Shown one piece after another: positions 25,714 to 45,800 of a DNA stretch of 64,000 nt. Source of the DNA: an uncultured Gammaproteobacteria bacterium (GTDB lineage Bacteria > Patescibacteriota > Microgenomatia > Levybacterales > UBA12049); NCBI GenBank assembly GCA_964497535.1, contig CAZCCG010000001.1:66688-130687 (forward strand), given 5' to 3'. Numbering within the stretch: the first letter of the stretch is position 1; every line of letters begins with the position of its first letter. A model generated the notes under the pieces. That model was not told where the DNA came from. It was given only the letters and a program-made list of their open reading frames with translations, and made no database searches. The translations under genes were made by a program, and so were the position numbers.

Positions 25714-25727
25714 CTAAGGTTCAACTT

Positions 25728-25810: not shown

Positions 25811-26935
25811 TTAACGCCCTCCGGCGCCCTTCATTTGCACAGCTTGTGCCTGAGTAACCATAATTCCTCCTTCAAGCATTGACAAACCGGCTAATTCTAA
25901 GATGGATTTCCAATCTATTTTCTTCCCTTTATTCAATTGGTCAACTACTGTTTCCATTGCTTTATTGGTTGCTGCTAGTGAGCTTTTAAGCGAATCTATT
26001 TGTTCTTTTAGTTCTTTTATTTGCTGTTGCTCTGGCGTTAAAGGAGCTTCTACTGATGTTTCTCCTTCTTGTGTTTGATCATTTTGCGCTCCCTCTTGCT
26101 GACCGTTGTTATTTACTGCAGGCTCTTGCGCCCCAGCTGCGGCTGTTTCTGCTCCATCTGTTGCTGGCTGTGCATCTGGATCTGTTATTACAGCTTCTCC
26201 TGCAGCGGATTGGGATCCTGCTTCCTGTGCTCGAGCATGATCAACTGCTGCCTGGACATATTCCCGAGTTGCATCATCCATTTGCCAGTTATTGTCTGCA
26301 TGAAGTTTAGCCATTACATCATCTACGTTTGTAGATCCGGAAATATCAATATTTAGATTACGCAATTCATTATATGCGCCTGCTCTTCGTGCAGCTTGTG
26401 CTTGTTCTGCGGCAGGATCAACTGTAGTATCCGGCCGGGCAGCTCCATCAGAAGCTTCTGTACCTGCGGCCGCAGCGGGTCTTACCCCTGATTCTGCTGC
26501 ACCTGTAGTGTTCTGTTCTCCCGGTCTCGGTTCTTCTGTTGAACCAGGAGCAGTCGGTCGTATACCAGGAGGTGTCTCTGTACTTACTCCGGCTTGATCG
26601 GTTCCTTCTGCAGGTCGTGGTGGCTCTGCCGCACCCGATGTTGCTGGCCGCTCAGCACCTGCGGCAGGTGTTCTAACTTCATCTACCATACCTGCTCTGG
26701 TATTGTCTGCGCCTGATGCCTGTGGTCCTTCTACTTTTACTCCTTTAGCACCCCACGCATTGCCTCCTTCTCCTCTAAATAACCCTTTGAAACCCTCTGC
26801 TCCTCGTCCTACTAACCCACGAATCCCACGGGCTGCTGCCTGGTTACGGGCGGAATCAACACCAGGCCTCGCTGCATCTGGTCTGACTGAGGAGCGGGCT
26901 GCTTCTTGCTGTGGTACGGGCGTTTCTGCTGCCAT
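25811..26935 (-). CDS. Hypothetical intrinsically disordered Ala/Pro/Gly/Thr-rich protein with C-terminal coiled-coil.
   Basis: 374-aa ORF of strongly biased low-complexity composition; the C-terminal 60 aa are predicted helical (QQQIKELKEQIDSLKSSL). Confidence 0.45.
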   Translation of the reverse strand: MAAETPVPQQEAARSSVRPDAARPGVDSARNQAAARGIRGLVGRGAEGFKGLFRGEGGNAWGAKGVKVEGPQASGADNTRAGMVDEVRTPAAGAERPATSGAAEPPRPAEGTDQAGVSTETPPGIRPTAPGSTEEPRPGEQNTTGAAESGVRPAAAAGTEASDGAARPDTTVDPAAEQAQAARRAGAYNELRNLNIDISGSTNVDDVMAKLHADNNWQMDDATREYVQAAVDHARAQEAGSQSAAGEAVITDPDAQPATDGAETAAAGAQEPAVNNNGQQEGAQNDQTQEGETSVEAPLTPEQQQIKELKEQIDSLKSSLAATNKAMETVVDQLNKGKKIDWKSILELAGLSMLEGGIMVTQAQAVQMKGAGGR

Positions 26936-26937
26936 AG

Positions 26938-27291
26938 TTATTGAGTCCCTTTCTGCATATCTTTTGCGATTGTTATTGCATGTTCGATATTGCCTTTACT
27001 AATCGCATTGCGCATTTTTATAAGCACTCGTTGTCGTTCGACTTCCTGCGTTTCATCTAGCTTTTCAACATAGACTTCTTGTGCCTCAGGATATATTTTT
27101 GCCAATTCTTTCAGCTTGTCAAGTAAATCCTGATGGTCTACGACCGGCAACATAGCCAGAAAACTCTGTGCCAGTTCTTTCGCTTTATCCGGATCAGTTT
27201 TGTTCTCTTCCAAATGCTTTGCTATTAACTCCAGCAATTCATTTGCCACCGTATCTACTTCTTGTTGGATATCCATATCACAACCAATCAT
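26938..27291 (-). CDS. Hypothetical acidic all-helical protein, translationally coupled to the 25811 gene.
   Basis: 117-aa ORF ending 2 nt before the next start on the same strand. Confidence 0.4.
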   Translation of the reverse strand: MIGCDMDIQQEVDTVANELLELIAKHLEENKTDPDKAKELAQSFLAMLPVVDHQDLLDKLKELAKIYPEAQEVYVEKLDETQEVERQRVLIKMRNAISKGNIEHAITIAKDMQKGTQ

Positions 27292-27383
27292 TACATACTA
27301 TAACCTTTTCTGTCAATAAATGCGCCAGAATAGACCATTACAAAACTTGTATCGACAATCCCTCTAAAGTACAATGAACATAT

Positions 27384-27848
27384 ATGAAATTTGAATTTTC
27401 AGCCGGGGGCATCGTGTATAAACGCCAAACTATGCAGAACCATACGCAAAACAACGCGGAAGATATTTTGATATTGGTTGCTCAGCATTCCGGGCATCAT
27501 GGATGGGTTTTTCCCAAAGGCCATATTGGAGATACTATACAAGGAGAGAAGAAAGAAGAGACAGCGGTGCGGGAAGTTGAAGAAGAAACTGGTGTTTTGG
27601 CAAAAATTGTTGAACCTCTTCCCCCGGTTACTTATTGGTACGTACTGAAGAAAGAAAAAATTAAAAAAACAGTATATTATTTCCTCATGAAATATCTCTC
27701 CGTGGATTCGAGCAAAAAAGATGAGGAAATGGAGCAGGTTGAATGGCTGCCAATTGACGAGGTAGAAAATCGATTAACATATCCCTCAGATAAGGACGTG
27801 TGGCAGGAAGCAAAGAAACATCTTGAGAGCATAACGAAAAGCGTTTAG
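27384..27848 (+). CDS. NUDIX hydrolase.
   Basis: Nudix box GEKKEETAVREVEEETGV; 154 aa. Confidence 0.8.
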   Translation: MKFEFSAGGIVYKRQTMQNHTQNNAEDILILVAQHSGHHGWVFPKGHIGDTIQGEKKEETAVREVEEETGVLAKIVEPLPPVTYWYVLKKEKIKKTVYYFLMKYLSVDSSKKDEEMEQVEWLPIDEVENRLTYPSDKDVWQEAKKHLESITKSV

Positions 27849-27872
27849 TTAGTAGCGTATAGGGTATAGTTG

Positions 27873-27956
27873 CGGAGGAGACAGGATTCGAACCTGCGAG
27901 AGCTTTCGCTCGTACGCTTTCCAAGCGTATGCACTGGGCCACTATGCGACTCCTCC
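27873..27956 (-). tRNA. tRNA-Ser (GGA anticodon).
   Basis: Minus-strand cloverleaf. Acceptor ggaggag/ctcctcc. Anticodon loop ctTGGAaa, read as GGA. Long variable arm. T-loop ttcgaat. Confidence 0.75.
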
Positions 27957-28100: not shown

Positions 28101-29696
28101 ATGCGTTGTTCTGCCCGTTTTTTCACAAAATTACTCCTTTGTATTTGCGCGACCGTAGTATTTTATTTTTTGTATCCTGGAATTGATGCTTATGCTCAAG
28201 CACCATCAGTGGATCAAACCCAACAACCGCTAGTCCAAACAACAAACCCAACAAACTCCTATACTATTCCGCAGACCAATCCCGATGTTCCCCACAACCT
28301 TCATACCTGGACCCAAACAGTAATGATTGAAGTGATGTCAGCAATGACATGCCAACTTACCGGAGTTGACCCAACAACGAGAGAAGGAAAGTGTCTGGGA
28401 ATGGATCCAAAGACACAAAAAATTGGTTTTGTAGAAAGTGGCGGAGGAGCAATAGGAATGATGGGAACGATGATAGCCCAACTCTATACTCCCCCGATTC
28501 ATTTGTATGAATATACAGACTATATGGCAAGTAACTTTGGCATTGCCAAGCCTGCCTATGCCCAACAGCAACCTTGTGATCCTATTCATGGTTATGGTTT
28601 CTGCGGGATATCACCTCTTCTGAGTATCTGGACTGCATTTCGCAATATTGTATATCTTATCTTTACGCTTCTTTTTATTCTGGTAGGGCTGGGAATTATG
28701 CTTCGAATAAAAATTGACCCACGAGCTGTTATGTCGATTGAGAACCAAATACCACGGTTGGTAATGGGGCTGATTGTTATTACATTTTCTTTTGCTATTG
28801 TCGGATTTCTCATTGATATGATGTATGTTATTATCTATGTCATTTTTAACATTTTAAGTGATTCCAGTGTCGTTAACCCTGATACTGCCCATAAGATTGC
28901 TCAAGCACAGAAAACATTTCAGGGAGATAACCCCATTGGATTCATGAATAATATCATCGGTCTGAGAGAAGTTGTAGCTAACTCTTCTGGTGCAGTCAAA
29001 GATCTGGTTCAGAATATGTTTTATCAACGCCCCAATAATGGGAATATTTTTCTTCTCAGCGGCGTTGCAGATTTCTGGGATAATGCTCGCAATGCAGGAG
29101 GGTGGTTTCTGGGAGCGTTCTTTAGCATCCTTTCTTTTTTGATTATTGGAGCAGCAGTACTCTGGGCTATGTTCCGTCTCTGGTTTGCACTCCTGGCTGC
29201 CTATATTTTTCTGCTCGTGGATATTGTCTTAGCTCCTTTTTGGATAATATTTAGTGCATTCCCAGGATCCCCAGCTAACTTTGAAACCTGGATTCGAGAT
29301 GTATTATCTAACTTGATATCATTTATTGTGGTCATTGCCATGTTTATGCTTGGACAAGTCTTTATTGATACGTTCAACAGAGCCGGTGGACAATTATTTG
29401 TCCCCCCCCTCATCGGCAACCCAAATCCTGATGGGACAGGCAGTGCTCTTGCTGCACTCATAGGTCTGGGTATTATTTTAGTCACTCACAAAGCAGTAGA
29501 AATTGCAAAAGACCTTATAAAAGCTCCCACATTCAAATATACCTCCGCTATTGGTGAAGCGCTTACGGTGGGAGCTGCAGGACCCGGTAGATTTACCAAA
29601 CATATGGGAGAACACTTAACTCATGAAAACAAGGGTGGTATGTGGATGTATAAAGGAGGAGCCGTTGCTTCAGTAGGAAGATTCTTTGGGTTCTAG
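28101..29696 (+). CDS. Polytopic membrane protein with signal peptide; possibly VirB6/TrbL-like (inference from topology and locus).
   Basis: 531 aa. Cleavable leader, Cys-containing periplasmic stretch, then at least six TM helices. Confidence 0.45.
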   Translation: MRCSARFFTKLLLCICATVVFYFLYPGIDAYAQAPSVDQTQQPLVQTTNPTNSYTIPQTNPDVPHNLHTWTQTVMIEVMSAMTCQLTGVDPTTREGKCLGMDPKTQKIGFVESGGGAIGMMGTMIAQLYTPPIHLYEYTDYMASNFGIAKPAYAQQQPCDPIHGYGFCGISPLLSIWTAFRNIVYLIFTLLFILVGLGIMLRIKIDPRAVMSIENQIPRLVMGLIVITFSFAIVGFLIDMMYVIIYVIFNILSDSSVVNPDTAHKIAQAQKTFQGDNPIGFMNNIIGLREVVANSSGAVKDLVQNMFYQRPNNGNIFLLSGVADFWDNARNAGGWFLGAFFSILSFLIIGAAVLWAMFRLWFALLAAYIFLLVDIVLAPFWIIFSAFPGSPANFETWIRDVLSNLISFIVVIAMFMLGQVFIDTFNRAGGQLFVPPLIGNPNPDGTGSALAALIGLGIILVTHKAVEIAKDLIKAPTFKYTSAIGEALTVGAAGPGRFTKHMGEHLTHENKGGMWMYKGGAVASVGRFFGF

Positions 29697-32600: not shown

Positions 32601-33303
32601 CTCTTTGTCGATTACCGGTTTGATTTTCATCTGTTCCACCTCTATTTGCTGCTCCGGGTCCTCCCCCTTCCCCTTTCAAACCTTTTTCTTCAAGCTCCTG
32701 CGCCGCTTCTATTCCTATTTGCACCAAATCTATCAGCTCAGTTTCAGGAATTTTCTCACCGGCATCTTCTCTCTCCATTTGGTTTTCCTGACGCCTTAAT
32801 AGTTCCCCAAACACCGAAGACCCATACTGTTGCAAATCAGAAGCTAACCCTTCTACTGCTGCAAATACTTCATGCTGGTCTCTCCCATCGAGTTCTCTTT
32901 CCAACTCTTGTCTTCTTTGTCTTCCGAAGACGATTTCTCCTCGATACGCATCTTTTAATTCTTCATTATTCCATCGGTCAAGAGGTTTTACATCAATACG
33001 TTCTTGTTGGTTACGGGCAAAATTTCGAGCCTGAACATCTCGAATCTTGAGGATTGGATCTTGGGGTGGCTGTGTCTCCATTGGACGAGCAGCTTCAACT
33101 GCCGGCCGGAACCCTCCGAGTACTTCTGATGCACTGGGGCCATTATCTATCATAAATAATACTTCACTTTTAGCATACGGTCTGGGAGCTTCGGTTGTCA
33201 ACCGTGGAGCCTGATTTCTAGGCTCAAAAAGGGTACGAGCACCAAATGTGCTGGTCCGTGCCTGTTCAGAAACTGATGGTGTAAAAGTTAATCCTTCTTT
33301 CAT
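29698..33303 (-). CDS. Giant hypothetical protein (1201 aa), largely helical/charged with a C-terminal TM anchor.
   Basis: Single uninterrupted ORF. C-terminus MLVIMLLLLTFGGAEIVRIM is hydrophobic. No recognisable catalytic motif. Confidence 0.5.
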   Translation of the reverse strand: MKEGLTFTPSVSEQARTSTFGARTLFEPRNQAPRLTTEAPRPYAKSEVLFMIDNGPSASEVLGGFRPAVEAARPMETQPPQDPILKIRDVQARNFARNQQERIDVKPLDRWNNEELKDAYRGEIVFGRQRRQELERELDGRDQHEVFAAVEGLASDLQQYGSSVFGELLRRQENQMEREDAGEKIPETELIDLVQIGIEAAQELEEKGLKGEGGGPGAANRGGTDENQTGNRQRGTESADAFARTVTEDLDLGNYEPGNRGHYFASRLKKLGEDGKLTEKSLREERDRINAETEEGIIDPSDQAKLLDDIQLIQIKQIMALRGVTAEEAADMLNSFMGRPRLRGERTRLDARTKESYRLSLLDDRDMDELLTNPIGWLDQQFDLLYMNVRENQELDSPFMQSLMQSFSTGSRFLSKYNRADAEEFTRHFNSRINMIKLRSVMGGRSIEQVQSAASQVGMHGLLYSMSIEENLVGDIAGRLHEALDDMRLKQQRKNVTNDLIYKLQGDVIEEQFQLTQRGVGKFGSLDEERFQQSIISSSGRPYTYFELAKMSDKEFQRATTDEHGRAIISQDERATITEVYNTYAKITRVVRSAYDVLVGSQRQAVIAARGKRELSPTKVYRTDPIGPLKIYNEEEFNYEKWGIVTADQRQYVDAIKLDMANDWVEAQREQGINVSLTREQMLELGTRKFRDFIAPPDILSSGWRIEAILDSMQSRFRDRFQETEGKNARGQTAEDFALFFRLKTASRKHIIEEEDHHTHKKVRKEVVPEADAIWQKIAQYRPEEVLKLFRERAKDEGSFRSLVEDELFDSLDEPGKGKGTPQSARDERTLAEYRYDRFKEEYGKVIQMVRRRGYQKFEQLDLSQGFGEYTEDVAKALAPKDNGSMDLEQGRLRAAQLVEMFRRIKGFASDQKTRDMLIDDYRFTDTYFRTLVVDDAFLEELEKTELTYVDEDGNKKTVGKYVPLSQQLSTEAGGDGLRRMWNDTKVADEAGEKLLNGVIRVEAMEKRYTAAEDVAELSSAYNGPDGRINVLKYTMGTDIKLRRIPAWADALGIKELPMRGILTQIEKIYGPQAENLDMEATMHILDEYRNKLIKQARVVELTEDQKTRHDANGKPLFDPQTGNRLYLSQEEQERLLEQERHHQIESVESSWFGLRDELRASPKHFVQRRMLVIMLLLLTFGGAEIVRIMDFGGGVKKLAA

Positions 33304-33411
33304 ACCCGCAGTTTAACCGATGCAGCCTCATCAAGCTTGATATTGAGATTACAGCCAGCTCACAAAAGCCTGATATTTATTATTTAAAATGTATGATTTA
33401 TAATTGACGGG

Positions 33412-33777
33412 ATGAAGCCAGCTGACTTAGCGAAGAGACTAAAAACATTCGCGCTAACAGTATTAAAACTTGTTAAAATGCTGCCTAAAACAGAAGAAAA
33501 TAGGATATATGGGAGACAAGTAATACGCTCTTCATCATCTATAGGTGCTAACTATGCTGAGGCGCTGTGCGCTTTTACCTCTCCAGACTTTCTGCATGAC
33601 ATGAATAAATGTAGAAAAGAATCGAATGAAAGTGTATACTGGCTTGAGTTAATCTTTGAAGCAAATCCTGATTTCCAAGTTGTAATGACTGATTTAATTG
33701 ATGAAAGTAGACAACTATTGAAGATTTTTATGAGTTCTGTAAAAACTGCTAAAGAAAATCAAAAAAATAAAAAATAG
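33412..33777 (+). CDS. Four-helix-bundle protein of the 23S-rRNA-intervening-sequence / Avd-like family (TIGR02436-like), copy 1.
   Basis: QVIRSSSSIGANYAEA motif and YWLELI block; 121 aa. Confidence 0.7.
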   Translation: MKPADLAKRLKTFALTVLKLVKMLPKTEENRIYGRQVIRSSSSIGANYAEALCAFTSPDFLHDMNKCRKESNESVYWLELIFEANPDFQVVMTDLIDESRQLLKIFMSSVKTAKENQKNKK

Positions 33778-33807
33778 CTTTTCATAATAATAAATATTAA
33801 ATAATAA

Positions 33808-35166
33808 ATGCTAGATAAGACGACTCCTACTCATTTTGAATCTCTCTACCCTGTTGACTCACGCTCTGCTGAGCTTGAAAAGATAGTAACCTTTATTAAA
33901 GAAGGCAATTCCTGTCAAATCGTATCGTTACCCGGAGTCGGACGGGCCAACTTATTGGGATTTCTTGCCTATAATAAGGCTATAAAGGAGAAGCACCTAA
34001 GGGAAACCCTCAAATGGTTTCATTTTGTAGTCGTTAATTTCTCAGAAGTCCGCAAAAAGTCGCTCTTTGATGTGACGAAGTTTTTATTCCTGGCACTGGT
34101 TGACTCCTTACAAGAACGTGGCCTCACGCAGGAGTATGAGAAGGCAAGTACCATTTTTAAAGAATCTCTTAATTTTAACGATGAAGTCGTCTTGTTTGGA
34201 GGTCTGAAAAAGACAATAGATCTGTTGGCTATAGAGAAAGAGCTGACAGTTGTTTTTTTGTTTGACCGGTTTGAGTCATATATCCCCCAGCTGTCCGAAG
34301 ATTTCTTTACGAACCTGAGGATTTTGCGCAATCGTGCGAAATATCGTTTTTCTGTTGTGTTGACACTCAATCGTCCGCTTGAAGATAGTATCGATCCGGC
34401 TGTATTTGCAGACTTTCATGAATTTCTGGCAGGACATACCATTTATCTGCCACTTGTAGACGAACAGGGAATCATGTTTCGAATCGCCTATATCCAAAAA
34501 GTTACCGGTAAAACACTGGATAAAAAGCTCCTGGACAAAGTACTTGAGCTTACTGCAAAACACGGGAAGCTTACCCGCATCTCGGTTGAGATATTAACCA
34601 ATGGAGATCATGCAGATGTAACAGCAGAAACAGTTGAGAATTTCCTCCTCTCTCAAAAGACAATCCGAGGAGTCTTATATGAAATATGGAATGCCCTTAC
34701 CCCAGCAGAACAAACCCATTTGGAAAAGGCTCTTTTTGGAAAAGACACCTACGATGAACATACCCAGTATTTAGAACATGTAGGACTCATAAAAAACGAG
34801 AAAATTATCATTCCCCTCTTTGCCGCATTTGTAGAATCCCAAAAACAGAACACTTCAACACAAAAAGAGGAACATATCTCTTTTGATGCAATGACCAATG
34901 ATATTACAAAAGGGAAATTAGTGCTAACTGACAAACTGACAACTGCAGAATATCGGCTCCTGCAATACCTTTTGGAGAACTCGGACAAAATTCTTGCGCG
35001 GGAAGAAGTAATTACTGCGGTATGGCAGGATAAATCAACAGCCGGAGTCACCGACCAGGCGCTGGACCAGCTCATTTTTCGAATCCGTAAAAAAATCGAG
35101 GATGACCCCAATAACCCACAGCATCTCCAGACGGTAAAAGGGCGGGGATTTCGCTTCCTCCCCTAG
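33808..35166 (+). CDS. Transcriptional regulator: N-terminal NTPase-like domain plus C-terminal OmpR/PhoB-type winged-helix DNA-binding domain.
   Basis: C-terminus LTTAEYRLLQYLLENSDKILAREEVITAVWQD...DQLIFRIRKKIEDDPNNPQHLQTVKGRGFRF is a textbook trans_reg_C domain. N-terminal SLPGVGRANLLGF is P-loop-like. Confidence 0.65.
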   Translation: MLDKTTPTHFESLYPVDSRSAELEKIVTFIKEGNSCQIVSLPGVGRANLLGFLAYNKAIKEKHLRETLKWFHFVVVNFSEVRKKSLFDVTKFLFLALVDSLQERGLTQEYEKASTIFKESLNFNDEVVLFGGLKKTIDLLAIEKELTVVFLFDRFESYIPQLSEDFFTNLRILRNRAKYRFSVVLTLNRPLEDSIDPAVFADFHEFLAGHTIYLPLVDEQGIMFRIAYIQKVTGKTLDKKLLDKVLELTAKHGKLTRISVEILTNGDHADVTAETVENFLLSQKTIRGVLYEIWNALTPAEQTHLEKALFGKDTYDEHTQYLEHVGLIKNEKIIIPLFAAFVESQKQNTSTQKEEHISFDAMTNDITKGKLVLTDKLTTAEYRLLQYLLENSDKILAREEVITAVWQDKSTAGVTDQALDQLIFRIRKKIEDDPNNPQHLQTVKGRGFRFLP

Positions 35167-35206
35167 ACTTGCAATTTTCTCATAATTTAAGTTACGATCA
35201 ATCTAT

Positions 35207-36685
35207 ATGAACTATTTGAGACTCTTTTTGAGCGTTCTTCTCTTGCTTTCTTTTCCCATCAAAGCCTACGCCGATAACGCAGTTACTATGACCTATAAAC
35301 CCTCTCCTCTTTTTGCCAATAGCCCGGCTGTCAATTTCACCTTTCAGACCTCACCAGACAATCCCATCTTTACAGTAAAACCGCAATCGGGATATAACAC
35401 CTATACGCTTGCATTATGGAGACCCGGAGCTGACGCGAGCAATATTAAAGAACTAACCTTTTATTATCATGTAACAGCAACTCAATCAGCTTCTTTAGGC
35501 AATATGTTAGAAACTGGAGATTTTGATTTGCAAAAAAAATATGAAGCCTCAACCAATGCCACGGTTTGTGATAATATTTTCAGCTGTCTGGGTACCGCGC
35601 TTATTCCCGGAGGAGGATATCTTGTCGGATATCAAATTGCCAAAGATATTACCGGTAATAAGGTCATTCCCATTCAAATGAATACTCCTGGATATTGGAC
35701 ATTAAAATTATATCGAGAACAATTTCAACCAAAAACTGAAGACAAACAAAAAGATGATCCAAAAACAGGACTCATGTATGTCGACCAACCAAAATTTAAT
35801 ACGCTTATTCCCCTCTATGAAGGAGGATATCGAGTCTATCCTATCTGTGATGAAACGAAAGGATGTATCGCTTTAAGAATTTCCCCTTCTCAAATTAAAA
35901 ATGGCCAACCGTATGATCTCTATATTATTAATGCTATTCCCGGCCAAACGTATACCGTCTGGTATATGAAAAATGGAGTAACTGATGCATCAGCAATACG
36001 ATCAGCGAAGCCCAATATGGACATTATGAAGCCGGGAACTTTTGGTGATATTGCTCCTGATGGAACTCCTTATCCCATCGGCACACTTACAAAGATTGGC
36101 TCACAAGCTAAATCACCGTTCAGTGATATAAAGAATAATATTCTTTGTGTTTCTGCTGTAGGAACAGCACTTGACAGCTTTAGCACGAACCAGCTGACCT
36201 GTGATTTCTGGTTTAACCTCAATGATGTCCTGCGAAATGCCAGTGATCCAAATACTGCAGATGATGTCAATTATACCGTCCTCAGTAACCAACCCGGCCT
36301 GCCTCATCCTGATGAACCTCTTATCGATGAGAGTAGCTTTAAGAAAAAGACTACCCCTCCTCCCTGTTCTAAAGATAAAGATGCCTTCCAGAATGGATTA
36401 TGCGCACGATTTGATACGGCTATTGGGCCAATTGATACCACGCCAATGGGCTTTGTAAAGAGTGTATTTGGAATATTATTGTCACTTGCGGGAGTCATTG
36501 CCCTTATTATCATCATCTATTCCGGTTATTTGCTTATCATGTCCCAGGGAAATCCGGAAAAGATACAAGGAGCAAAAGATTCCATAACTTCTGCAATAGT
36601 CGGGCTTTTATTTATGATCTTTTCAATTATTATTATGCAATTTATTGGCGTAAACATCCTCCAACTCCCGGGATTTGGCAAATAA
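35207..36685 (+). CDS. Secreted protein with large extracellular domain and C-terminal TrbC/VirB2-like T4SS pilin module.
   Basis: Signal peptide. C-terminal LLSLAGVIALIIIIYSGYLLIMSQGNPEKIQGAKDSITSAIVGLLFMIFSIIIM matches the pilin pattern of the downstream small pilins. Confidence 0.55.
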   Translation: MNYLRLFLSVLLLLSFPIKAYADNAVTMTYKPSPLFANSPAVNFTFQTSPDNPIFTVKPQSGYNTYTLALWRPGADASNIKELTFYYHVTATQSASLGNMLETGDFDLQKKYEASTNATVCDNIFSCLGTALIPGGGYLVGYQIAKDITGNKVIPIQMNTPGYWTLKLYREQFQPKTEDKQKDDPKTGLMYVDQPKFNTLIPLYEGGYRVYPICDETKGCIALRISPSQIKNGQPYDLYIINAIPGQTYTVWYMKNGVTDASAIRSAKPNMDIMKPGTFGDIAPDGTPYPIGTLTKIGSQAKSPFSDIKNNILCVSAVGTALDSFSTNQLTCDFWFNLNDVLRNASDPNTADDVNYTVLSNQPGLPHPDEPLIDESSFKKKTTPPPCSKDKDAFQNGLCARFDTAIGPIDTTPMGFVKSVFGILLSLAGVIALIIIIYSGYLLIMSQGNPEKIQGAKDSITSAIVGLLFMIFSIIIMQFIGVNILQLPGFGK

Positions 36686-36711
36686 GATAAGCGTAAAGTG
36701 TAAAACGAAAA

Positions 36712-37086
36712 ATGCAAAGTAATAATGCTAAAGCAAAGCCGGAATTAAAGCAGCGAGCCTACATATACGCATTAGATATTATTCAATTTATTGATACCCT
36801 TGATAAAAAAGATTTCACTGTTCAAATCCTTGCCAAACAGTTATTGAGAAGTGCTACAAGTATTGGAGCCAACATTATTGAAGCTCAAGCTGGAAGCTCT
36901 AAAAAGGATTTTACGAATTTTTTTTCATATGCTTTAAAGTCTGCAAATGAAAGTAAATTCTGGTTAGGGCTCCTTCGAGATTCCCAGAAAGCAAATAAAG
37001 AAACTGTTAACAACCTGCTTCAAGAGACTTCCGAACTATCAAATATTTTAGGGTCAAGTATCTTAACGCTGAAGGGGAAACATTAA
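36712..37086 (+). CDS. Four-helix-bundle / Avd-like protein, copy 2.
   Basis: QLLRSATSIGANIIEAQAG and FWLGLL motifs; 124 aa. Confidence 0.7.
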   Translation: MQSNNAKAKPELKQRAYIYALDIIQFIDTLDKKDFTVQILAKQLLRSATSIGANIIEAQAGSSKKDFTNFFSYALKSANESKFWLGLLRDSQKANKETVNNLLQETSELSNILGSSILTLKGKH

Positions 37087-37157
37087 TTTGTTATTGTTTT
37101 TCACTTTTCACTTTTAATTTTACGCTTTCATGTTGTATACTATAATAAATTCACATA

Positions 37158-37490
37158 ATGAATCACTTACTCGCTCTTAGCATCAATGGACAACAAGTCC
37201 AGACTCCTGGAGGACTTCAGAATACCAGTAATGTAACTATTTCCTCTCTCATTTTTTTTGGAATTAATATGCTCATTTTTGCCGCTATTGCCTTGGCATC
37301 AATATTTTTGGTGGTATCAGGTGTGCAATGGATTATGTCAGGAGGAGATAAGCAAAAAATTGAATCAGCCCGAAAAAGAATTACACTGATTGTCACAGGG
37401 CTGATTATTGTTTTGGGAGCAGTACTGATACTCAACCTGGTAGGAGGAGTTTTTGGTATTAATTTCATGCAGGTACAGTTTCCCTCTTGA
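37158..37490 (+). CDS. TrbC/VirB2-like T4SS pilin.
   Basis: 110 aa. Two TM helices flank GVQWIMSGGDKQKIESARKRI. Confidence 0.6.
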   Translation: MNHLLALSINGQQVQTPGGLQNTSNVTISSLIFFGINMLIFAAIALASIFLVVSGVQWIMSGGDKQKIESARKRITLIVTGLIIVLGAVLILNLVGGVFGINFMQVQFPS

Positions 37491-37511
37491 CAAACTAAAG
37501 AAAAACTTACT

Positions 37512-37949
37512 ATGATAACTTTAATGAGAGTAAAACAGTCTATCGGTCTTATTGGTGGTACTATTGCATCATTAGCTTTTGTTCCACAAGCGTTTGCGCA
37601 GGCTCCATCTGACCCTAATTCTATTTGTCCACAGGATTCTGTATTTTTCAAACTATGTACCCAGGTTGGAGGATTGTCTTTGGGAAATATTGTTGGGAAA
37701 GTCATCAGTCTGTTATTGGTAGTAGCAGTTGTGGTCGCTCTTATCTTCCTGGTCTGGGGCGGCATCAAATGGATCATGTCAGGCGGAGATAAAGCAGGTG
37801 TTGAAGGCGCACGAAATCAAATTATCGCAGCAGTTGTCGGTCTGATTGTAGCATTTGCTGCTTATATCATCTTGAACTTTGTATTAGGGCTCTTCGGACT
37901 CGGAGCAGCCAATGCCATTGTCCTTCCTACCCTCATCCCCAATCCATAA
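37512..37949 (+). CDS. TrbC/VirB2-like T4SS pilin.
   Basis: 145 aa. Signal peptide. Two TM helices flank GGIKWIMSGGDKAGVEGARNQI. Confidence 0.6.
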   Translation: MITLMRVKQSIGLIGGTIASLAFVPQAFAQAPSDPNSICPQDSVFFKLCTQVGGLSLGNIVGKVISLLLVVAVVVALIFLVWGGIKWIMSGGDKAGVEGARNQIIAAVVGLIVAFAAYIILNFVLGLFGLGAANAIVLPTLIPNP

Positions 37950-38004
37950 AGATCTCTCCCCTTGTTATTGTTTTTATCACATCAACTTGTTACTATAATT
38001 ATAT

Positions 38005-38322
38005 ATGTGGGATAGCTGTGCGCCAAATGGAGTTGCAACAATACAATGTATTCCGGTTCTTATCAAACTTCTTATTAATGCTGCCTTTAGTTTTGTCGGG
38101 ATAACGGCACTTTTTTTCATCATCTGGTCCGGAGTTCAATTGGTGACAGCCTCAGGAGAGGATCCAAAACAAGTTGAAGGAGCACGAAAAACTCTGACAT
38201 TTGCTATTGTTGGACTTATTGTCGTTCTTATGTCATTTTTTGTAGTCAACTTTGTAGCCTTTGTCAGTGGAACTCCCTGTATTGCGCAATTTGATACCTT
38301 TACTCTCGGCAGCTGCCAGTAA
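38005..38322 (+). CDS. TrbC/VirB2-like T4SS pilin.
   Basis: 105 aa. SGVQLVTASGEDPKQVEGARKTL lies between two TM helices. Confidence 0.55.
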   Translation: MWDSCAPNGVATIQCIPVLIKLLINAAFSFVGITALFFIIWSGVQLVTASGEDPKQVEGARKTLTFAIVGLIVVLMSFFVVNFVAFVSGTPCIAQFDTFTLGSCQ

Positions 38323-38363
38323 TGATGAATTCCAAATTTATAATATCCAATTTCTAATTTCAA

Positions 38364-38735
38364 ATGGATCGTAAAAATTATGATATTCATGAACGTATAT
38401 TTAACTTTATTGTAGCTGGTATAGAATTTCTTAATAAACTCCCAAAGACTCCCACTAACCTCATCATTATTAATCAATTAAGCCGGTCAATTACTTCAAT
38501 GGGAGCAAATGACCAGGAAGCCGATGGTGCTCTCACGAAAAAAGATTTTATCCACGGCTTTACTGTCGTCAGAAAAGAAGGAAAAGAATCAGTATTCTGG
38601 TTTAGGCTTATTGGTAAAACAAATAAATCATTCTTTGAAGAGACTTCCCCTTTAATTAAGGAAGGGCATGAGATTGTAGCAATTATAAGTGCTATTATTA
38701 AAAATGCTTCAAATAGCAATAAAGAAAGAAAATAA
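38364..38735 (+). CDS. Four-helix-bundle / Avd-like protein, copy 3.
   Basis: QLSRSITSMGANDQEADGA and FWFRLI motifs; 123 aa. Confidence 0.65.
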   Translation: MDRKNYDIHERIFNFIVAGIEFLNKLPKTPTNLIIINQLSRSITSMGANDQEADGALTKKDFIHGFTVVRKEGKESVFWFRLIGKTNKSFFEETSPLIKEGHEIVAIISAIIKNASNSNKERK

Positions 38736-38803
38736 CCTAAATCTTAATTGGAAATTTGATATTTGAAATTACAAATTTTAAATTTATCGCCTCTATTCCT
38801 ATA

Positions 38804-39484
38804 TTAGGATCGAGGTTTACGTTGTACTATCTTTGTTAATCCAATTACTACCGCATCAATTCCTAATGGAATCAATAACAATATGCTTGCCTGTTTGAGA
38901 AACTCCATGGTGTGGTCAGAAAATAGTGCAGTGATCCAGGAGGACGGAATCCGAAAACCCGATATAAAAAATGCTGTACCAATCAAAAGCAGCGCTAAGG
39001 CAAATTCTACGGTTCCCTCCACATCTTTGCTGCTTGAAAACATCGTATTACCAATTTCAAAAACGATATAAAACAGAAGAATAATATTCCACGGAGCGGG
39101 AACAAGCTGTTGTGTTGGGAAGAGAAAATAAAATGAAGCAGCCAGAAGCAGGATAAATCCTACCAGAATCGGCGCGACACCAATCAGCGCACGGCGAAAC
39201 GGATCACACTGAGCAATCTGTACACTCCCCAACTTCACACTCTCCCCTCGCACTTGAGGAATAAATTCTATTTCACCAGTACGAACAAATAAAAGATTTG
39301 CTGTCAGGTAATGCGCGAGCTCATGGATGACAACACCGGGAAGAAACAGAAATGCCAATGCATATACTGACCCTACATGACTGTGGCTTATCCGCCAAAA
39401 AATAGTACTTAATGATTTTGAGAGGATGCGGGACAAGAAAAAAAGCGCCAACAACTCACCAATAAGTATTCCAATGAAATGCAT
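38804..39484 (-). CDS. Polytopic membrane protein with HExxH motif (putative intramembrane or membrane-embedded zinc metalloprotease).
   Basis: VVIHELAHYLTA lies within a TM region; 226 aa with about six TM helices. Confidence 0.45.
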   Translation of the reverse strand: MHFIGILIGELLALFFLSRILSKSLSTIFWRISHSHVGSVYALAFLFLPGVVIHELAHYLTANLLFVRTGEIEFIPQVRGESVKLGSVQIAQCDPFRRALIGVAPILVGFILLLAASFYFLFPTQQLVPAPWNIILLFYIVFEIGNTMFSSSKDVEGTVEFALALLLIGTAFFISGFRIPSSWITALFSDHTMEFLKQASILLLIPLGIDAVVIGLTKIVQRKPRS

Positions 39485-39563
39485 ACCTATTAGTATAGAA
39501 TCCTCTCATCGAGAAAACAATGTCGGCTTGATTCCCTATGCTGCTTTATATTACTATTGACGT

Positions 39564-42398
39564 ATGCCAACAATCGAACAAGTAAGACCTCCCATCCAGG
39601 AAGTAGAACCCACTATAGAAACTCCTTCCGAACATAGAGCGTTGGTAGGATTTCAAGCACGGGTGCTCCTGGGAAATGAGGCATTAGATCCGAATAATCA
39701 TGTCGAGACAATAACCCCTGAGGCATTAGGAACCTTTGCCGGACGTAATTATGACATGTTGCAAGATGCTTCACAGAGAGAACGGCACTCATTTTGGCAG
39801 GAGACTCCTCATGAGACTCACCAAGCCCAAAAAGACGCGTGGGCAACCACATTTGCGGAAACAATTGCTTCTTCTCAACCCTTTTTCGAAACTGAAAAAG
39901 GACAACAGTGGATAGCAACACTGTCTCAGTTTGGCGTCACCAGTGCTTCCCCATCCACAGAGGAAATACATCACATATATGATTTGTATTTCTCATCCGA
40001 TTCCGATACGCCGGCACTCAAACAATTTGTCGGCAGAGTAATTGATACTTATACGGAAAATGGAACCCTTAACTATGCACGGCTCAAAACTGATTTGCCT
40101 GCCGTAGAATGGTTTTCCAATATTTTTGGCCATACCTCTTCGGAAGTCATCGGGCAAATGATTGATGCTGAGGCAAAACTAATTCAAAATCCCCAAACAA
40201 TTATTCAAGAAGCTTCCCAACTCACTCAGAATGGACAACCACGAAGTCGAATAAATGATTTAGAAGAACGGGAAGAAGAGTTACTTATATTCCTCACCGG
40301 CTCGTCTACTTCCTCTCAAACCCACGAGGATGTTGAGGAACCATATGCGGAACAAACTCCAGCAGAGGAACCAAACCAGACTGATATAGAAGCTGAAGCA
40401 ATACCTCTGGGACCACGTAGTGATTCAAGAAATGGACATGACGCAGACTCACTCAGAGAACCAGCACGAGGTGAATCTGATCACCCAGATACAGAACCTG
40501 CCGAAAAATCACACGAGGATGCAATCCCACCCCAACCTCTTGCACAACTCGGAACCGCAACAGGGGCAGAAACACACGAAACTGCAGAAGCAGCTCTCCT
40601 ACCTTACGCCGAAAAGCTTGCCGACTTATATATATCTCTGGGTATTAAAGATAAAGGCTATAAAGATATATTTGCAATCGGTATCCAGCACCTTACCACA
40701 GATACGCCAAGAGCTGATCAACAGAAAATGTTGAAAATATTACGTGATACTGCTATGGACATGGAACACTATTATGCTTCGGAACAGCAAGACCCCGATC
40801 AAGTTGAGAAAGCTACAAAAATGGCACGTGTCATTCGAAAACTCCTCAAATCATCCTCCAATCTTTCAGAAGAGGCACTCGAAACTGCATTTGCTGATAC
40901 CCCGCCCACTCCAGAGCAAAAACCCAAGCCGTTTCGACTCCGCCTACACCGTGAGGGAGTAGAAAATGATGCATTAAGAATAGTAATAGGAGGAAAAGAT
41001 GATATGCCGGAACCAGATATTGCACTTACGCCATACGCGCAGGACTTGAAAAACTTGCTTGATACCGGATGGATGCCTCGTTCTGCTGAAAGCCAGATGC
41101 TCACACCGCTTGTGGATTCTATTCGTAAGGGGATGCCTCTTGAGGAACAGCTCCTGCGCTATACCCAAATTCATACTGTTATATCAAGCATAGAAGAATC
41201 ACTTCGGGAATCCTCTCCGCCTACCGAGTGGCATATGACGCAGGTTGTCGAGATGAAAAATCTTGTTGAGGGATATATACAGGATATTCGAGAAATGAAG
41301 GGTAAACCCAGAGAAATAGCAACCACACATCCAGAACTAATTGCACCAGCCCAAGGAATTGGACAAATTGCCGAAGGTCTTGACCCTACCTATAGAGATC
41401 GTCTGAACAGTCTGTTAGAAGGCTTAACGGAACAATCATCTACAGAAGAGCGAGAACGTATTTTTGAAGAAATTCTTCATGTCACTTCTCTCTGGGATAA
41501 GAATTTTACCAATATGCAAAACTATAGAGATGAAGACAGTAAAGAATTTACTGCAGCAGGGCAGCAAAAAGCAGTTGCTCATAGAATTAGACAAGCAGCA
41601 GAAACAGCTCTGGAAGGGTTACGGCACGGACAAGCTGAACCATCAGAAGCAGTCGTGGCAGGTGAACCAGGACGAGAAGCACAACCGCAACTGCTTGCTT
41701 CCGGGGAATCTATTCAGGCGATCCTTGATACATTTAGACCCAGTGATGATAGGTTTTACCATGATAAGATACAATCAATATCACGACATTTAACAGCAGG
41801 CATTCAGGGGCATCCTACTCAACAAGCATTTTTCCTGCATGAAATCCATGCTATCACTGAGGAGATGGAAGGATTTTTTCAGGAAAATGCCAGAAGAAAA
41901 CCTGAATTTTCTCTGGCTCAGATAGAAAAAGCCCGGGCAATACGAGCAGCAGTAGAACAAGCACAGAGACAACTGAGACAAGAACAAGAAAACCACGAGG
42001 AACAAGCAGCATCTGATACTCCTACGCTGGAACCGTCGCAAATACATACAGCGGTAACAGACAGAGCCGGAGAAGACGAACCAATCCTTACTCTTGATGC
42101 AATACGAAAGGGAGACACAGTAGAAGAAGAACACTCATCAGAACCGCCGCCCCCTCCTCCATTACCTGTTGTTGAAGATGCTACTGACGAGGAGACAGAA
42201 CATATTGATGAAGAGGTAGAACTTAAGCATTCCCCTGATACCGATCCAGATGAAGAAATGGCAGAAGATTCTGAGTGGGAGGATGATCAACAACCGCAGC
42301 GGGGAAAAAATAAGGGAAGAAGTTTTATGAGGAATGGAAAACCACTAGACAAACGCAATGCCAGACGCGCTCGAGAACAGCAACGCCAATGGAATTAA
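39564..42398 (+). CDS. Large acidic hypothetical protein (944 aa), low-complexity, with C-terminal basic tail.
   Basis: Single ORF with high Glu/Asp/Gln content; no catalytic motifs seen. Confidence 0.45.
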   Translation: MPTIEQVRPPIQEVEPTIETPSEHRALVGFQARVLLGNEALDPNNHVETITPEALGTFAGRNYDMLQDASQRERHSFWQETPHETHQAQKDAWATTFAETIASSQPFFETEKGQQWIATLSQFGVTSASPSTEEIHHIYDLYFSSDSDTPALKQFVGRVIDTYTENGTLNYARLKTDLPAVEWFSNIFGHTSSEVIGQMIDAEAKLIQNPQTIIQEASQLTQNGQPRSRINDLEEREEELLIFLTGSSTSSQTHEDVEEPYAEQTPAEEPNQTDIEAEAIPLGPRSDSRNGHDADSLREPARGESDHPDTEPAEKSHEDAIPPQPLAQLGTATGAETHETAEAALLPYAEKLADLYISLGIKDKGYKDIFAIGIQHLTTDTPRADQQKMLKILRDTAMDMEHYYASEQQDPDQVEKATKMARVIRKLLKSSSNLSEEALETAFADTPPTPEQKPKPFRLRLHREGVENDALRIVIGGKDDMPEPDIALTPYAQDLKNLLDTGWMPRSAESQMLTPLVDSIRKGMPLEEQLLRYTQIHTVISSIEESLRESSPPTEWHMTQVVEMKNLVEGYIQDIREMKGKPREIATTHPELIAPAQGIGQIAEGLDPTYRDRLNSLLEGLTEQSSTEERERIFEEILHVTSLWDKNFTNMQNYRDEDSKEFTAAGQQKAVAHRIRQAAETALEGLRHGQAEPSEAVVAGEPGREAQPQLLASGESIQAILDTFRPSDDRFYHDKIQSISRHLTAGIQGHPTQQAFFLHEIHAITEEMEGFFQENARRKPEFSLAQIEKARAIRAAVEQAQRQLRQEQENHEEQAASDTPTLEPSQIHTAVTDRAGEDEPILTLDAIRKGDTVEEEHSSEPPPPPPLPVVEDATDEETEHIDEEVELKHSPDTDPDEEMAEDSEWEDDQQPQRGKNKGRSFMRNGKPLDKRNARRAREQQRQWN

Positions 42399-42477
42399 AA
42401 ACTCAACCGTAATCTCCTCTCCTCTTGACTTCTTATGAAATATATTGTCATACTTACTGTTGAAGGAGGTGATTGGA

Positions 42478-42861
42478 ATGCAAGATCAAACACAACAAAT
42501 TCCACCGGAAGTGAAATCTTTTCTTGAAGGTATCTTACAGGATGCCAATATGGTGACGTTGGATGACCAAATGAAAGAAGAGATGGTCAAAGAACTCTAT
42601 GTACGGCTGGATAACTTTATCACAGCAGCGATTGTCGATCATATGCCTGCTGACAAAGTTGAAGAATTTATCAAAATGAACGAGGAAAAAAAGTCCAAAG
42701 AGGACGTTGAAAAATTTGTTAAAGAAGTCATGCCAAATGCCCAAGAGGTATTTACCAATGCTTTCATGGAATTTCGTGATCTGTATTTAGGAGGAGTTGC
42801 TGCAAAACGGAATGAACCGGAAGCTGCAAACACAACCGTTCCATCTTCTTCTAAGAACTAA
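42478..42861 (+). CDS. Small acidic helical protein, partner of the downstream giant protein (paralog of the ORF at 48473).
   Basis: RBS aaggagg before the ATG at 42478. IPPEVKSFLEGILQDANMVTLDD...FIKMNEEKKS...MPNAQEVF aligns with the 48473 protein. Confidence 0.55.
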   Translation: MQDQTQQIPPEVKSFLEGILQDANMVTLDDQMKEEMVKELYVRLDNFITAAIVDHMPADKVEEFIKMNEEKKSKEDVEKFVKEVMPNAQEVFTNAFMEFRDLYLGGVAAKRNEPEAANTTVPSSSKN

Positions 42862-42866
42862 CTACC

Positions 42867-45800
42867 ATGGCAGAAATCAACCAACCAGGTGGTCCTGAAG
42901 TACGATATAATCCTGAAAGAACAGATTCTCGTGAAGCAGTTGTTCATGCTGCACGGGTTGGATTTGATGAATTTAATAAACAAGCGAGAACACTTGAAGC
43001 AAAAAAAACTGATGAACTTACTCCAAAGGAACGCCAATTTCTTCGTGACCGCAATGTTTTCAAAAGTGGTATTGATGAAACGATAGACCACAAAGACGCC
43101 AATGGTAACCCAGCTGCGCGAGATAGCATTCCAACCGACTTTGAAAATAGAGAAAATCCGCAAGGCCCACAATTTCGACAATATGAAGGGATTCCTGTCG
43201 GAAGAGTAATTGGGTTCCTCCACGAGAAAATTGGGGCATTAGAAGCAGACCCCGCTAGCGACAAAATGTACATTGCAGAACTCAAACAATCCTATGATGT
43301 TTTGAGAAGAAATACTAAGGCATATTCTGAAAGGAGAAGTGTCTCAAATGGAAAGTTTTTCAGTCGCGTCGAAGAAGAGGCACGGAGAATTGCTCAAGAT
43401 CCTTTAGTAGCAACCCATGACCAAAATGGCAACTCTGATCTGGTAGCAAATTACTATTATGCGCTCAATGAGATTCGAACCAGACAGGAACTGATATTCC
43501 CCAAAAATAAAAACGTAGTACTCCCCCCTGAGGAACCTGATACAAAATTATTGCCGCCAGGACAACGACCGGCAGAATTACCTCCGGGGAATCATCCCCC
43601 AGAGCTTCCTCCTGGACAAAAACCAGGAGAACTAGGACCCGGTCAACATCCACCGGAACTTCCTCCGGGGGTACATCCTCCTGAATTACCCCCAGGCCAA
43701 AAACCTCCGGAACTACCACCCGGGCAGAAACCGCCGGAATTACCGCCGGGAGTTAAACCACCAGAATTACCACCTGGAGATCGTCCTCTAGAACTTCCGC
43801 CCGGTAGACCAACACCGGAAGATGTAGACCAGATCAGGCGTGATTTTGCTATTGTTAATCGCCACGCAGATGTAGAAAAGCGAGCACGAGAATACGCAGA
43901 GCAAAAAGTCCGTGAAGAATATAAAAAAGGCAGTTTCTTAAATCCCAAAGATATGTTCCGTAAAATAAAGCTTCGTGTCGGAGAAGAATATTACCGCCAA
44001 AAATATATCCAGGAAGCTCGCACGGCAATGCTTGCCAATAATAATTCATATATGGACATGGATGCAGCGACTCTCGGACTAACAGACGCAAAACATCGAA
44101 TAGATGAAGAACGTCAAGCAGGGACAGCAAAAGCAGAACAAGTAGCACTTCAAGCGCGGGAAAGAATCCAAGTAGGAGGAACTGAAGTCAAAGAAGCACA
44201 CGGCGCGCTTAAGGATGCGATTATGAAGGACATCATTCGTCCAGTTATTGAGGGCAAAATTACTGACCCAGCACAAGTACAAGATGTTATCAAGCAATTT
44301 GTAGAAGCAAATAATACTGATCCGGATGTCCAGGAAATATTTGGCAAAGACGCCACCCAGTATGGCAAACAGGCAGAATACTATGCGTCCAATTTGTTAG
44401 AAACAGGAGCATTGGTGAGAGAAGATGTAGCAGCTCATCGATATGCTATGGAGCAGATTGACGAAGTCGTGCATATCCAATTAGGTAATCCTTCATGGGC
44501 AGCGGAAACACAAGCTAATTTCAATACTGCTGACAAATTAATTGCAAGGCTTCAAAATGGACCATTGAGAGGATGGGCCGCAAATCCGGCAGCCATCGGG
44601 CTAGCAGCCTCTGCGGTAGGATTTTTTGGTACGAGATTACCCGGCAGAGTAGGACAAGCAGCTGGTGCAGTACCTGGTGTTGGAGTACTCATGGGAGCAG
44701 GATTTGCAGCACTTCGTCGCAACATGGATCTGAAACATGACATGGAAGCCCATCGTGTCGAACGTGCATATAACATGCAGGTTCCAAAAGATGCAAAACG
44801 GCGGGAAGCACTTGAGCAATTTGCCTATAAAACCGCTTCAGTGAATGAGTTACTCGAAGGAGGACAAGACAGAGAAGGAATGCTCGGCGGCGACTCACGG
44901 GGACTAAAAGAATTAGCTCAACTCAATCTATCTATTAATAATCCGAATACTCCAAACCCGGCAGAAACAGATCTACGAGCACTGATGAACCGGGAACATT
45001 TACTCCGTCGTATGTCAGAAGTCCAAGCGCGTCTGGATTTCTCCGCCCAGGAAAAAGTTGATTTGATAACATTTGAAACCCGCGAGCAGGTCGAACAAGG
45101 AAGACTGGAACTCATCAAAGGACTTGCCCAAGCTCGACTGGCATTGAAAAATGCCGGCATGGATGAAGATACCATGAAGGCAGACCTTGATCGGTACGGT
45201 AGTCAATGGACCAAATCATTTATACAGGACCGCGATCAAGAAAACAGAAAGTTTGCCAATTATCGAGTGAAAGAATCACTAAAAGCTGGCGCTTTTGCCG
45301 GCGCAATAGGATTGGGAGGAGTATTCGTCAGCCAGGAAGCTCTTGCCGGCGCAGGAAGAGTCATCGGCAAGCATGTGAATGATACGATACTTGAGCACGG
45401 CATCAAAGGCATCGGAGGAATCGCAGAAACTGTTAAATCCCATCTTCCAACACCAGGATCAGTACCTGCAGCTGTAGGAGCAGTGGCAGAAGCAGGAAGA
45501 AATACTCAACAGGCAATTGGATCTATTGACGTAACTCCAGGTGCGGTTGCAAATAAGGTTGGTGAGGTAGTAAATGGTATACGATCCACAGATATTCCCG
45601 GTGTTGTCTCAGGAGCAGCAGCTGAGGCAGGAAATAAAATTGGCAGTACGAATCCTGAACAAATACTCAGAAGCATGGGAGATTTCCTGACCGCAGAAGC
45701 ACCTGTTCCTTCCTCTTCTGAAATCCATGGATTAATCAGCGCAGACCTGCTCAAACAAGCATATGAAAATCCGCGTAATTTCCCAATTTTTGATGCAGCC

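Follow-up and report, generated by a model that had tools for sequence, protein, structure and literature searches.

Four-helix-bundle genes in a Patescibacteria pilin operon as probable cargo of hairpin-bounded cassettes of the rRNA intervening-sequence type

The 64-kb stretch of DNA analysed here, referred to throughout as the window, covers part of a Levybacteria-like Patescibacteria genome that encodes a type IV secretion system (T4SS). At 33412-38735, three small genes for four-helix-bundle proteins (FHB genes, A1-A3) alternate with a regulator gene (REG) and four T4SS pilin genes (P1-P4). This clustering is confirmed: the open reading frames (ORFs) lie exactly at the coordinates given in an original prediction made from the sequence alone, and profile scores support their identity (Table 1). 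That prediction did not mention that each FHB gene is bracketed by an inverted repeat.

FHB genes and their bracketing repeats

The assignment of the FHB proteins to TIGR02436 and of the pilins to PF18895 agrees with the profile scores. A1, A2 and A3 all exceed the TIGR02436 cut-off (24 bits), while A1 and A2 also pass that of PF05635, with A3 marginally under it (33.0 against 33.8 bits). Likewise, P1, P3 and P4 pass the PF18895 cut-off and P2 is marginally under it (23.8 against 26.6 bits). The RxxxSxxxNxxE motif, known from the protein family of 23S rRNA intervening sequences (IVSs) (PMC3936711), is present in the alignment of all three FHB proteins as RSSSSIGANYAE, RSATSIGANIIE and RSITSMGANDQE. 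Moreover, in a search of the Protein Data Bank the FHB profile matched two IVS-family structures, 2RLD and 2GSC, both of which contain five chains. No further FHB or pilin gene was found in the window by six-frame profile search. As predicted, the window has no rRNA gene, and Pfam scans of its larger ORFs found no reverse transcriptase (RT). Models of defence systems in PADLOC gave no match for A1-A3 or REG at E<=0.01.

Of the four longest inverted repeats in 33200-39600, three enclose an FHB gene, one gene apiece. Compared with dinucleotide shuffles, they reach z-scores of 7.5 for A1 (24 nt, 88% complementary), 4.1 for A2 (37 nt) and 10.0 for A3, whose core repeat (38342-38365 and 38761-38784) extends to the arms listed in Table 1. 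The A2 arm is made of degenerate 7-nt units, namely AAGCGTA, AAGTGTA, AAACGAA, AAATGCA and AAGTAAT. A1 is placed between a promoter-like TTGATA of the REG operon (33337-33342) and the REG start codon, in other words within the 5' leader of the REG-pilin operon. The left arm of A2 begins 3 nt past the P1 stop codon, and that of A3 begins 1 nt past the P4 stop codon, the latter cassette occupying the space between P4 and a convergent M50-like gene. Additionally, the right arm of A2 yields a -35-like TTTACG located 16 nt ahead of a conserved TATAAT upstream of P2. In RNA minimum-free-energy (MFE) folds, the terminal stem comprises 26 pairs in A1 and 32 pairs, start codon included, in A2. The three FHB genes are only 30-36% identical to one another, which points to independent arrivals and not to local duplication. 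On sequence comparison, A1-A3 thus appear to be three independent arrivals from different subclades and not paralogous partners of the pilins.

Table 1. Coordinates of the FHB cassettes, host genes, ORF-less hairpins and T4SS context genes in the window.
Feature	Position	Strand	Description
Cassette A1	33375-33809	+	arms 33375-33398 and 33786-33809; 435 bp
Cassette A2	36689-37127	+	arms 36689-36725 and 37091-37127; 439 bp
Cassette A3	38324-38788	+	arms 38324-38365 and 38747-38788; 465 bp
A1 FHB ORF	33412-33777	+	TIGR02436 73.2 bits; PF05635 51.1 bits
A2 FHB ORF	36712-37086	+	TIGR02436 92.2 bits; PF05635 79.2 bits
A3 FHB ORF	38364-38735	+	TIGR02436 53.3 bits; PF05635 33.0 bits
REG	33808-35166	+	452 aa; Trans_reg_C
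P1	35207-36685	+	492 aa; PF18895 27.2 bits
P2	37158-37490	+	PF18895 23.8 bits
P3	37512-37949	+	PF18895 34.4 bits
P4	38005-38322	+	PF18895 34.1 bits
ORF-less hairpin, collapsed A2-type cassette	15426-15495	+	33-nt arms, 4-nt loop
ORF-less hairpin, A-rich/T-rich heptamer arrays	12125-12209	.	between two convergent genes
ORF-less heptamer-array palindrome, ATATGAA units	6221-6282	.	spacer adjoining PGK gene
TrbL/VirB6-like T4SS gene	28101-29696	+	context
PrgI (T4SS core)	54401-55735	+	context
TraC-like (T4SS core)	55765-56433	+	context
VirB4 (T4SS core)	56390-58657	+	context
Lytic transglycosylase (T4SS core)	58768-62127	+	context

The bracketing repeats are not peculiar to this locus. A scan of metagenome contigs gave 80 loci with A2-like FHB genes, 56-83% identical. 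The FHB profile used on related loci also took in divergent clades (L003 and L015; L-numbers denote contig loci compared with the window). Since raw duplex energies did not discriminate, inverted repeats were scored by alignment against dinucleotide shuffles and control ORFs. A bracketing repeat with z>3 was present around 82% of 79 A2-like FHB ORFs, as against 2.6% of 115 control ORFs taken from these loci (Mann-Whitney p = 8e-25), and the median span was 452 bp. A second, GC-richer clade, designated NIAEG and recovered by scanning a collection of viral contigs, has bracketing repeats in 72% of 29 genes. Its arms are heptamer arrays as well, for instance AAGGCAG five times, TAGGGAG four times or ACGTTGA four times. 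The arms of GC-richer cassettes (L172-L204; for example, L183, L189, L196 and L198) resemble the STRR heptanucleotide repeats of heterocystous cyanobacteria.

The arms share a common architecture. Their autocorrelation peaks at lags 7 and 14 (0.67 and 0.66), with 0.25-0.49 at the remaining lags, and their polarity on the coding strand is fixed, the left arm being 56% A and the right arm 57% T. The bounding repeats consist of 3-8 degenerate tandem heptamers, A-rich upstream and T-rich downstream of the gene. The median arm length is 34 nt, and the left arm terminates at or over the start codon. An arm pairs much more strongly with its own partner than with a non-cognate arm from its clade (median score 35 against 22, p = 8e-20), which indicates that complementarity is maintained element by element. 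The FHB ORF itself is intact and conserved in nearly all copies.

Insertion, loss and spread of the cassettes

Insertion is co-directional and immediately past an upstream stop codon. The orientation of the cassette agrees with that of its upstream neighbour in 71 of 78 cases and with that of its downstream neighbour in 73 of 81 (p ~2e-14 against an expectation of 50%), with the left arm beginning a median of 5 nt past the upstream stop codon and the right arm finishing a median of 37 nt ahead of the next start codon. With the FHB ORF beginning inside the left arm or directly behind it, the cassette has no space for a promoter of its own. Scanning of 14 A2-like loci for rRNA revealed no cassette inside an rRNA gene. 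In L094, a 23S rRNA match on the minus strand (985-4208) spans 3224 nt against a model of 2925 nt and so holds an insertion of about 300 nt; the A2-like FHB cassette of that locus lies 1.8 kb from the 23S rRNA, outside it and on the opposite strand.

Comparison with relatives shows that gain and loss affect whole cassettes. Of the relatives found, L081 is the closest, with a REG that is 87% identical; it retains the synteny NUDIX-TrbL-large gene (minus strand)-REG-P1-P2-P3-P4, and two of the three sites are empty in it. Upstream of REG its spacer measures 77 bp as opposed to 504 bp in the window, the A1 insert falling between the conserved TTGATA and the REG start codon. Between P1 and P2 the spacer measures 37 bp as opposed to 472 bp, and homology between the two genomes ends at the P1 stop codon and resumes just past the A2 right arm, at a conserved ATGTTGTATACTA(T/C)AAT. 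The spacer after P4 in L081 holds a minus-strand FHB gene of a different clade, 48% identical to A2 and 28% to A3. In L001, L009, L010 and L012, P4 directly adjoins or overlaps the M50-like gene, and no FHB genes were found in the examined stretches of L004, L008, L009, L010, L012 and L016. The spacer upstream of REG is occupied in 9 of about 17 informative loci. A search for more empty sites, through synteny between the window and the loci whose FHB genes are most similar to A2, found none.

The contents of a given spacer, and the spacers used by a given clade, both vary. Among Levybacteria loci, the FHB genes upstream of REG belong to at least four clades that are 15-25% identical, whereas REG itself is 42-60% identical. 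The P1/P2 spacer holds an A2-type cassette in the window and in L156, an L002-type cassette in L166 and a distant type in L005. Conversely, one tight A2 subclade (74-83% identical) occupies the P1/P2, PrgI/TraC-like and TraC-like/VirB4 spacers of T4SS loci, and is also found between two type IV pilus pilins, after SecF, after RNase Y and upstream of rpoB. Its FHB proteins retain this 74-83% identity between hosts whose VirB4 is 44-47% identical to that of the window. The FHB protein is thus far more alike than the host VirB4, which points to horizontal spread of the cassette alone. Taken together, these sequence comparisons show cassettes that have moved, as we reconstruct it, between sites and between distantly related hosts.

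Cassettes also decay to ORF-less hairpins. In the hairpin at 15426-15495, a left arm including the ORF start, ATGCAAAAC, is joined directly to a right arm. This hairpin aligns to both ends of the A2 cassette, with 25/29 and 27/35 identities, and the match takes in the start codon and first codons (AAAAATGCAAA) and the terminal TTTACGCTTT. Two further ORF-less heptamer arrays with dyad symmetry are listed in Table 1. Period-7 arrays are also seen in intergenic positions at 12906-13014, 14351-14380, 17948-17979, 25605-25634 and 55727-55750. The last of these is situated in the PrgI/TraC-like spacer, where L096, L103 and L137 have FHB cassettes.

The host operon and its surroundings

REG is the conserved first host gene of the pilin operon. 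It has 1229 homologues at E<=1e-30, with conserved REG-P1-P2-P3-P4 synteny, and its orthologues derive from Candidatus Levybacteria and other Patescibacteria metagenome-assembled genomes. Its predicted composition, an NTPase-like domain fused to an OmpR winged helix, holds at the fold level. Trans_reg_C, the OmpR-type winged helix, is matched at residues 376-450 with 71.8 bits. No Pfam family is matched by the N-terminal 347 aa, and in the confident AlphaFold model (predicted local distance difference test 88.8) Foldseek matches them to Walker-type and AAA+ ATPases (2QEN, ORC/Cdc6 and RFC), suggesting an AAA+-like domain. The Walker A motif is degenerate, GLPGVGRAN, with Arg replacing Lys, and across the family an OmpR winged helix is paired with an AAA+ fold of the ORC/Cdc6 kind that has a Walker A of the form GxxGxGR[AS]N. 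REG stands ahead of the pilin array in most loci examined; it is divergent from the array in L006, L010 and L011, and has no downstream pilin array in L003, L013, L014 and L016.

The pilin domain of P1 covers residues 418-480, and its N-terminus looks by eye like a signal peptide. P1 orthologues of variable length occur in all related loci, and P2, P3 and P4 are likewise orthologous in relatives. In L006 (5882-7165) and L012 (13123-14601), a polytopic membrane protein of 427-492 aa is encoded on the opposite strand between P2 and P3; the two proteins appear alike by eye.

The pairing of FHB genes with T4SS genes was expected to recur beyond this genome, and in part it does. T4SS operons provide the context of 9 of the 80 A2-like loci and of 15 of 93 FHB ORFs, an enrichment with binomial p=1.9e-4 for loci and 6e-10 for cassettes when the background is assumed to be 2%; per locus, p ranges from 2e-4 to 0.014 for backgrounds of 2-4% of spacers, values that were assumed and not measured. 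Within REG-centred loci the enrichment is not significant (Fisher p=0.18, with crude gene calling and some ORFs mislabelled). Alternating arrays recur. L137 and L132, with three cassettes each, show the order FHB-PrgI-FHB-TraC-like-FHB(-VirB4); those of L137 come from three clades, and those of L132 were left out of the tree. L088 and L090 have alternating arrays with two cassettes each, and L156 has the P1-FHB-P2-P3-P4 order of the window. Across all 80 cassettes, the immediate neighbours fall into 197 Pfam families.

In relatives, the same operon spacers also house toxin-antitoxin modules, including AbiEii/DUF6922, PrlF/PIN and a BrnA-like gene. The T4SS/pilin region may accordingly be read as a permissive, co-directional and dispensable operon in which selfish modules accumulate. 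The toxin-antitoxin-like modules observed in or beside T4SS/pilin spacers are of the DUF6922/AbiEii, PrlF/PIN, MazE/PIN, HicAB and BrnA-like types, together with a Phd/PIN-like pair, and are located at 1343-2629 and 5573-5872 in L005, 814-1522 and 8390-9982 in L163, 8363-9252 in L166, 3209-3827 in L014 and 594-1069 in L169.

Several other features of the window deserve a record. A module consisting of a small DUF5663 gene directly followed by a giant protein occurs twice in succession (42445-42861 with 42867-48356, and 48446-48799 with 48808-53505). The first giant protein, of 1829 aa, has a PP2C-like stretch and contains at 43550-43804 a 27-nt tandem repeat in about seven overlapping copies, proline-rich by its codons; the second, of 1565 aa, has a GT9 domain. 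A 60-nt direct repeat (75% identical) is found at 560-619 and 4271-4330, at or upstream of the starts of two TrmB-like regulator genes. Its second copy overlaps the annotated start of the gene at 4258-5112, and the repeat could be a shared operator or promoter. Finally, a tmRNA gene on the minus strand at 21327-21749, scored at 90 bits by Rfam and unreported by ARAGORN, lies beside a cluster of seven tRNA genes (22327-27956).

Competing explanations and relation to known systems

The explanation that we consider probable is that each FHB gene is the cargo of a promoter-less IVS-type cassette of about 435-465 bp, bounded by inverted repeats and residing outside rRNA, in the spacers of protein-coding operons. 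By analogy with the IVSs of Coxiella and Leptospira, the arms would pair into a long stem in the operon transcript, and this stem would hide the FHB start codon. RNase III would then cut the stem, so that the insertion would cost the host operon little. Such a low cost could allow cassettes to build up in dispensable, strongly co-directional operons, such as the T4SS and pilin arrays of Patescibacteria. The FHB protein probably acts on nucleic acid to the benefit of its cassette.

A number of observations weigh against this account. The RNA stem and its cleavage by RNase III are a step that we infer from the analogy with IVSs. The terminal stem of A3 is missing from the RNA MFE fold, and the MFE of the whole cassettes is not below that of shuffles (z -0.7, +0.7 and -1.1). 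Arm mismatches show no excess of G.U over A.C (107 against 94, p=0.40), and selection for pairing of the sense RNA, as opposed to DNA, is consequently not demonstrated. The FHB protein appears from sequence to be under purifying selection, with dN/dS of about 0.3 in 28 usable pairs, an estimate that is rough because dS is near saturation. As for mobility, no signal of target-site duplications was detected and no transposase, integrase or RT was found. These two absences, together with arms that differ between cassettes, also set the cassettes apart from transposons, insertion sequences and miniature inverted-repeat transposable elements. Moreover, the T4SS enrichment and the colonisation of the spacer upstream of REG by at least four clades exceed simple tolerance, and targeting or a benefit in cis may be involved.

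A benefit in cis is the core of an alternative that we regard as unlikely, although it ranks above the others: the hairpin would be the selected part, acting on the operon mRNA as a processing site, 3' stabiliser, attenuator or element resembling repetitive extragenic palindromic (REP) sequences and bacterial interspersed mosaic elements (BIMEs), and setting pilin/T4SS ratios, with the FHB ORF as passenger or helper. The location of cassettes directly after stop codons would fit this explanation, as would the ORF-less heptamer hairpins in other spacers, the -35-like TTTACG supplied ahead of the TATAAT of P2, and the enrichment in arrays of small surface-appendage genes (T4SS pilins, PrgI/TraC-like/VirB4 and type IV pilus pilins). 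However, the presence of cassettes varies strongly among close relatives, their AU-rich stems are weak, and a pure cis-element would not need an ORF that stays intact and conserved. The original prediction suggested a functional coupling to the pilins, such as a chaperone or regulator role; in this explanation the FHB proteins would be true T4SS or pilus accessory factors (chaperone, regulator or nucleic-acid adaptor). The T4SS contexts, the recurring alternating arrays and the frequent filling of the spacer upstream of REG speak for such a role, yet we hold it to be improbable. From a chaperone dedicated to the pilins one would expect conservation and orthology from locus to locus, and the FHB genes show neither: two sites are empty in L081 and the third has a cassette of another clade on the opposite strand, several relatives have no FHB gene in the stretches examined, each site is polyphyletic, and members of one subclade adjoin genes as different as rpoB, SecF and RNase Y. 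The diversity of neighbouring families and the lack of significance in REG-centred loci point the same way, and a dedicated partner of the pilins is not supported.

The other idea raised originally, that the locus is the remnant of a pilin-diversifying diversity-generating retroelement (DGR) with the FHB genes as former Avd genes, draws on the fold family shared with Avd (PMC10053308) and on the strong divergence of the pilin paralogues. It is nevertheless very improbable, given that no RT and no template/variable repeat pair was found in the 64 kb, that the FHB profile matches IVS-family structures and not Avd (4DWL) at E<=1, and that the cassettes arrived independently. Direct repeats of at least 45 nt in the window are confined to the paralogues of penicillin-binding proteins, the tRNAs, the proline-rich tandem repeat and the upstream repeat by the TrmB-like regulator genes, and no pair touches a pilin gene. 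Equally hard to credit is the notion that the bracketing repeats are products of chance in AT-rich, low-complexity spacers around ordinary small genes. The spacers are indeed AT-rich, and raw RNA duplex energies of FHB flanks are unexceptional compared with other gene flanks, but the strong control energies probably come in part from repeated GC-rich hairpins (two of the strongest controls), and the shuffle z-scores, the control ORFs, the comparison of cognate with non-cognate arms and the GC-rich examples all contradict chance.

If the FHB genes are generally cargo of such cassettes, the implications reach beyond this operon. The function of the IVS-encoded, S23p or Avd-like family has been unresolved since IVSs were described around 1990, and its occurrence in cas and T4SS operons has been read as functional association; guilt-by-association annotations of the family would then need caution. 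Furthermore, rRNA IVSs would be one habitat of a broader element, and the arms would offer a concrete nucleic-acid ligand to test with the FHB protein. A bolder extension, which we put forward as speculative and doubtful at present, is that the family is the protein of widespread hairpin-bounded mobile elements, comprising autonomous cassettes and ORF-less derivatives, of which rRNA IVSs were the first noticed. A pentamer would recognise about five heptamers of its own arms, serving as a factor for mobility, maintenance or RNA protection, and Patescibacteria T4SS and pilus operons would be preferentially targeted or benefited.

Among known systems, the closest are ORF-bearing rRNA IVSs. The 23S rRNA IVS of Coxiella burnetii, for instance, is 428-444 nt long; its ends pair in a stem of 28 bp, tandem heptamers stand just 5' of its S23p ORF, and RNase III excises it (PMC4990558). 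The cassettes resemble the IVSs of Leptospira and Coxiella in carrying the same protein family in the loop, in size (435-465 bp) and in a patchy distribution suggesting horizontal spread (PMC4990558), and resemble that of Coxiella in particular in their terminal inverted repeats and in heptamers next to the start codon. Unlike rRNA IVSs, A1-A3 occupy the spacers of protein-coding operons, past stop codons and co-oriented with host genes, and unlike the decaying S23p ORF of Coxiella, the FHB ORFs are intact and, apparently, under selection.

Another parallel is offered by REPtrons, in which the gene of a REP-associated tyrosine transposase (RAYT), an HUH/Y1 transposase, is flanked by inverted REPs. 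REPtrons and FHB cassettes have in common a small gene within inverted hairpin repeats and scattered ORF-less hairpins, and no target-site duplications were found here. The FHB protein is not an HUH/Y1 transposase, however, and the cassettes differ further in an arm sequence proper to each cassette, in heptamer-array arms and in several divergent protein copies per locus. With Avd, the FHB proteins share the four-helix-bundle fold and, according to the literature, pentameric relatives; RT, template/variable repeats and a match of the FHB profile to 4DWL are absent.

Genes of the 23S_rRNA_IVP family have been reported inside cas operons, such as between cmr3 and cmr2 (PMC3936711), and in 16S and 23S insertions of bacteria of the candidate phyla radiation (CPR) (bioRxiv 10.1101/2024.02.27.582315). 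In the portions of these reports that we consulted, the association is read functionally or merely listed and bracketing repeats are not mentioned; the term 'inverted repeat' is absent from the CPR preprint. A description of heptamer-array repeats bracketing free-standing FHB genes was not found in the literature searched, the coverage of which is incomplete. The T4SS region also stands out as a place where selfish modules collect, namely FHB cassettes and toxin-antitoxin pairs. A published account of VirB2-like pilin arrays in Patescibacteria T4SSs does not identify the interspersed genes; those of the window are FHB cassettes, to which relatives add toxin-antitoxin modules. Thus, FHB cassettes identify part of the 'non-pilin genes' that break up the pilin arrays of Patescibacteria.

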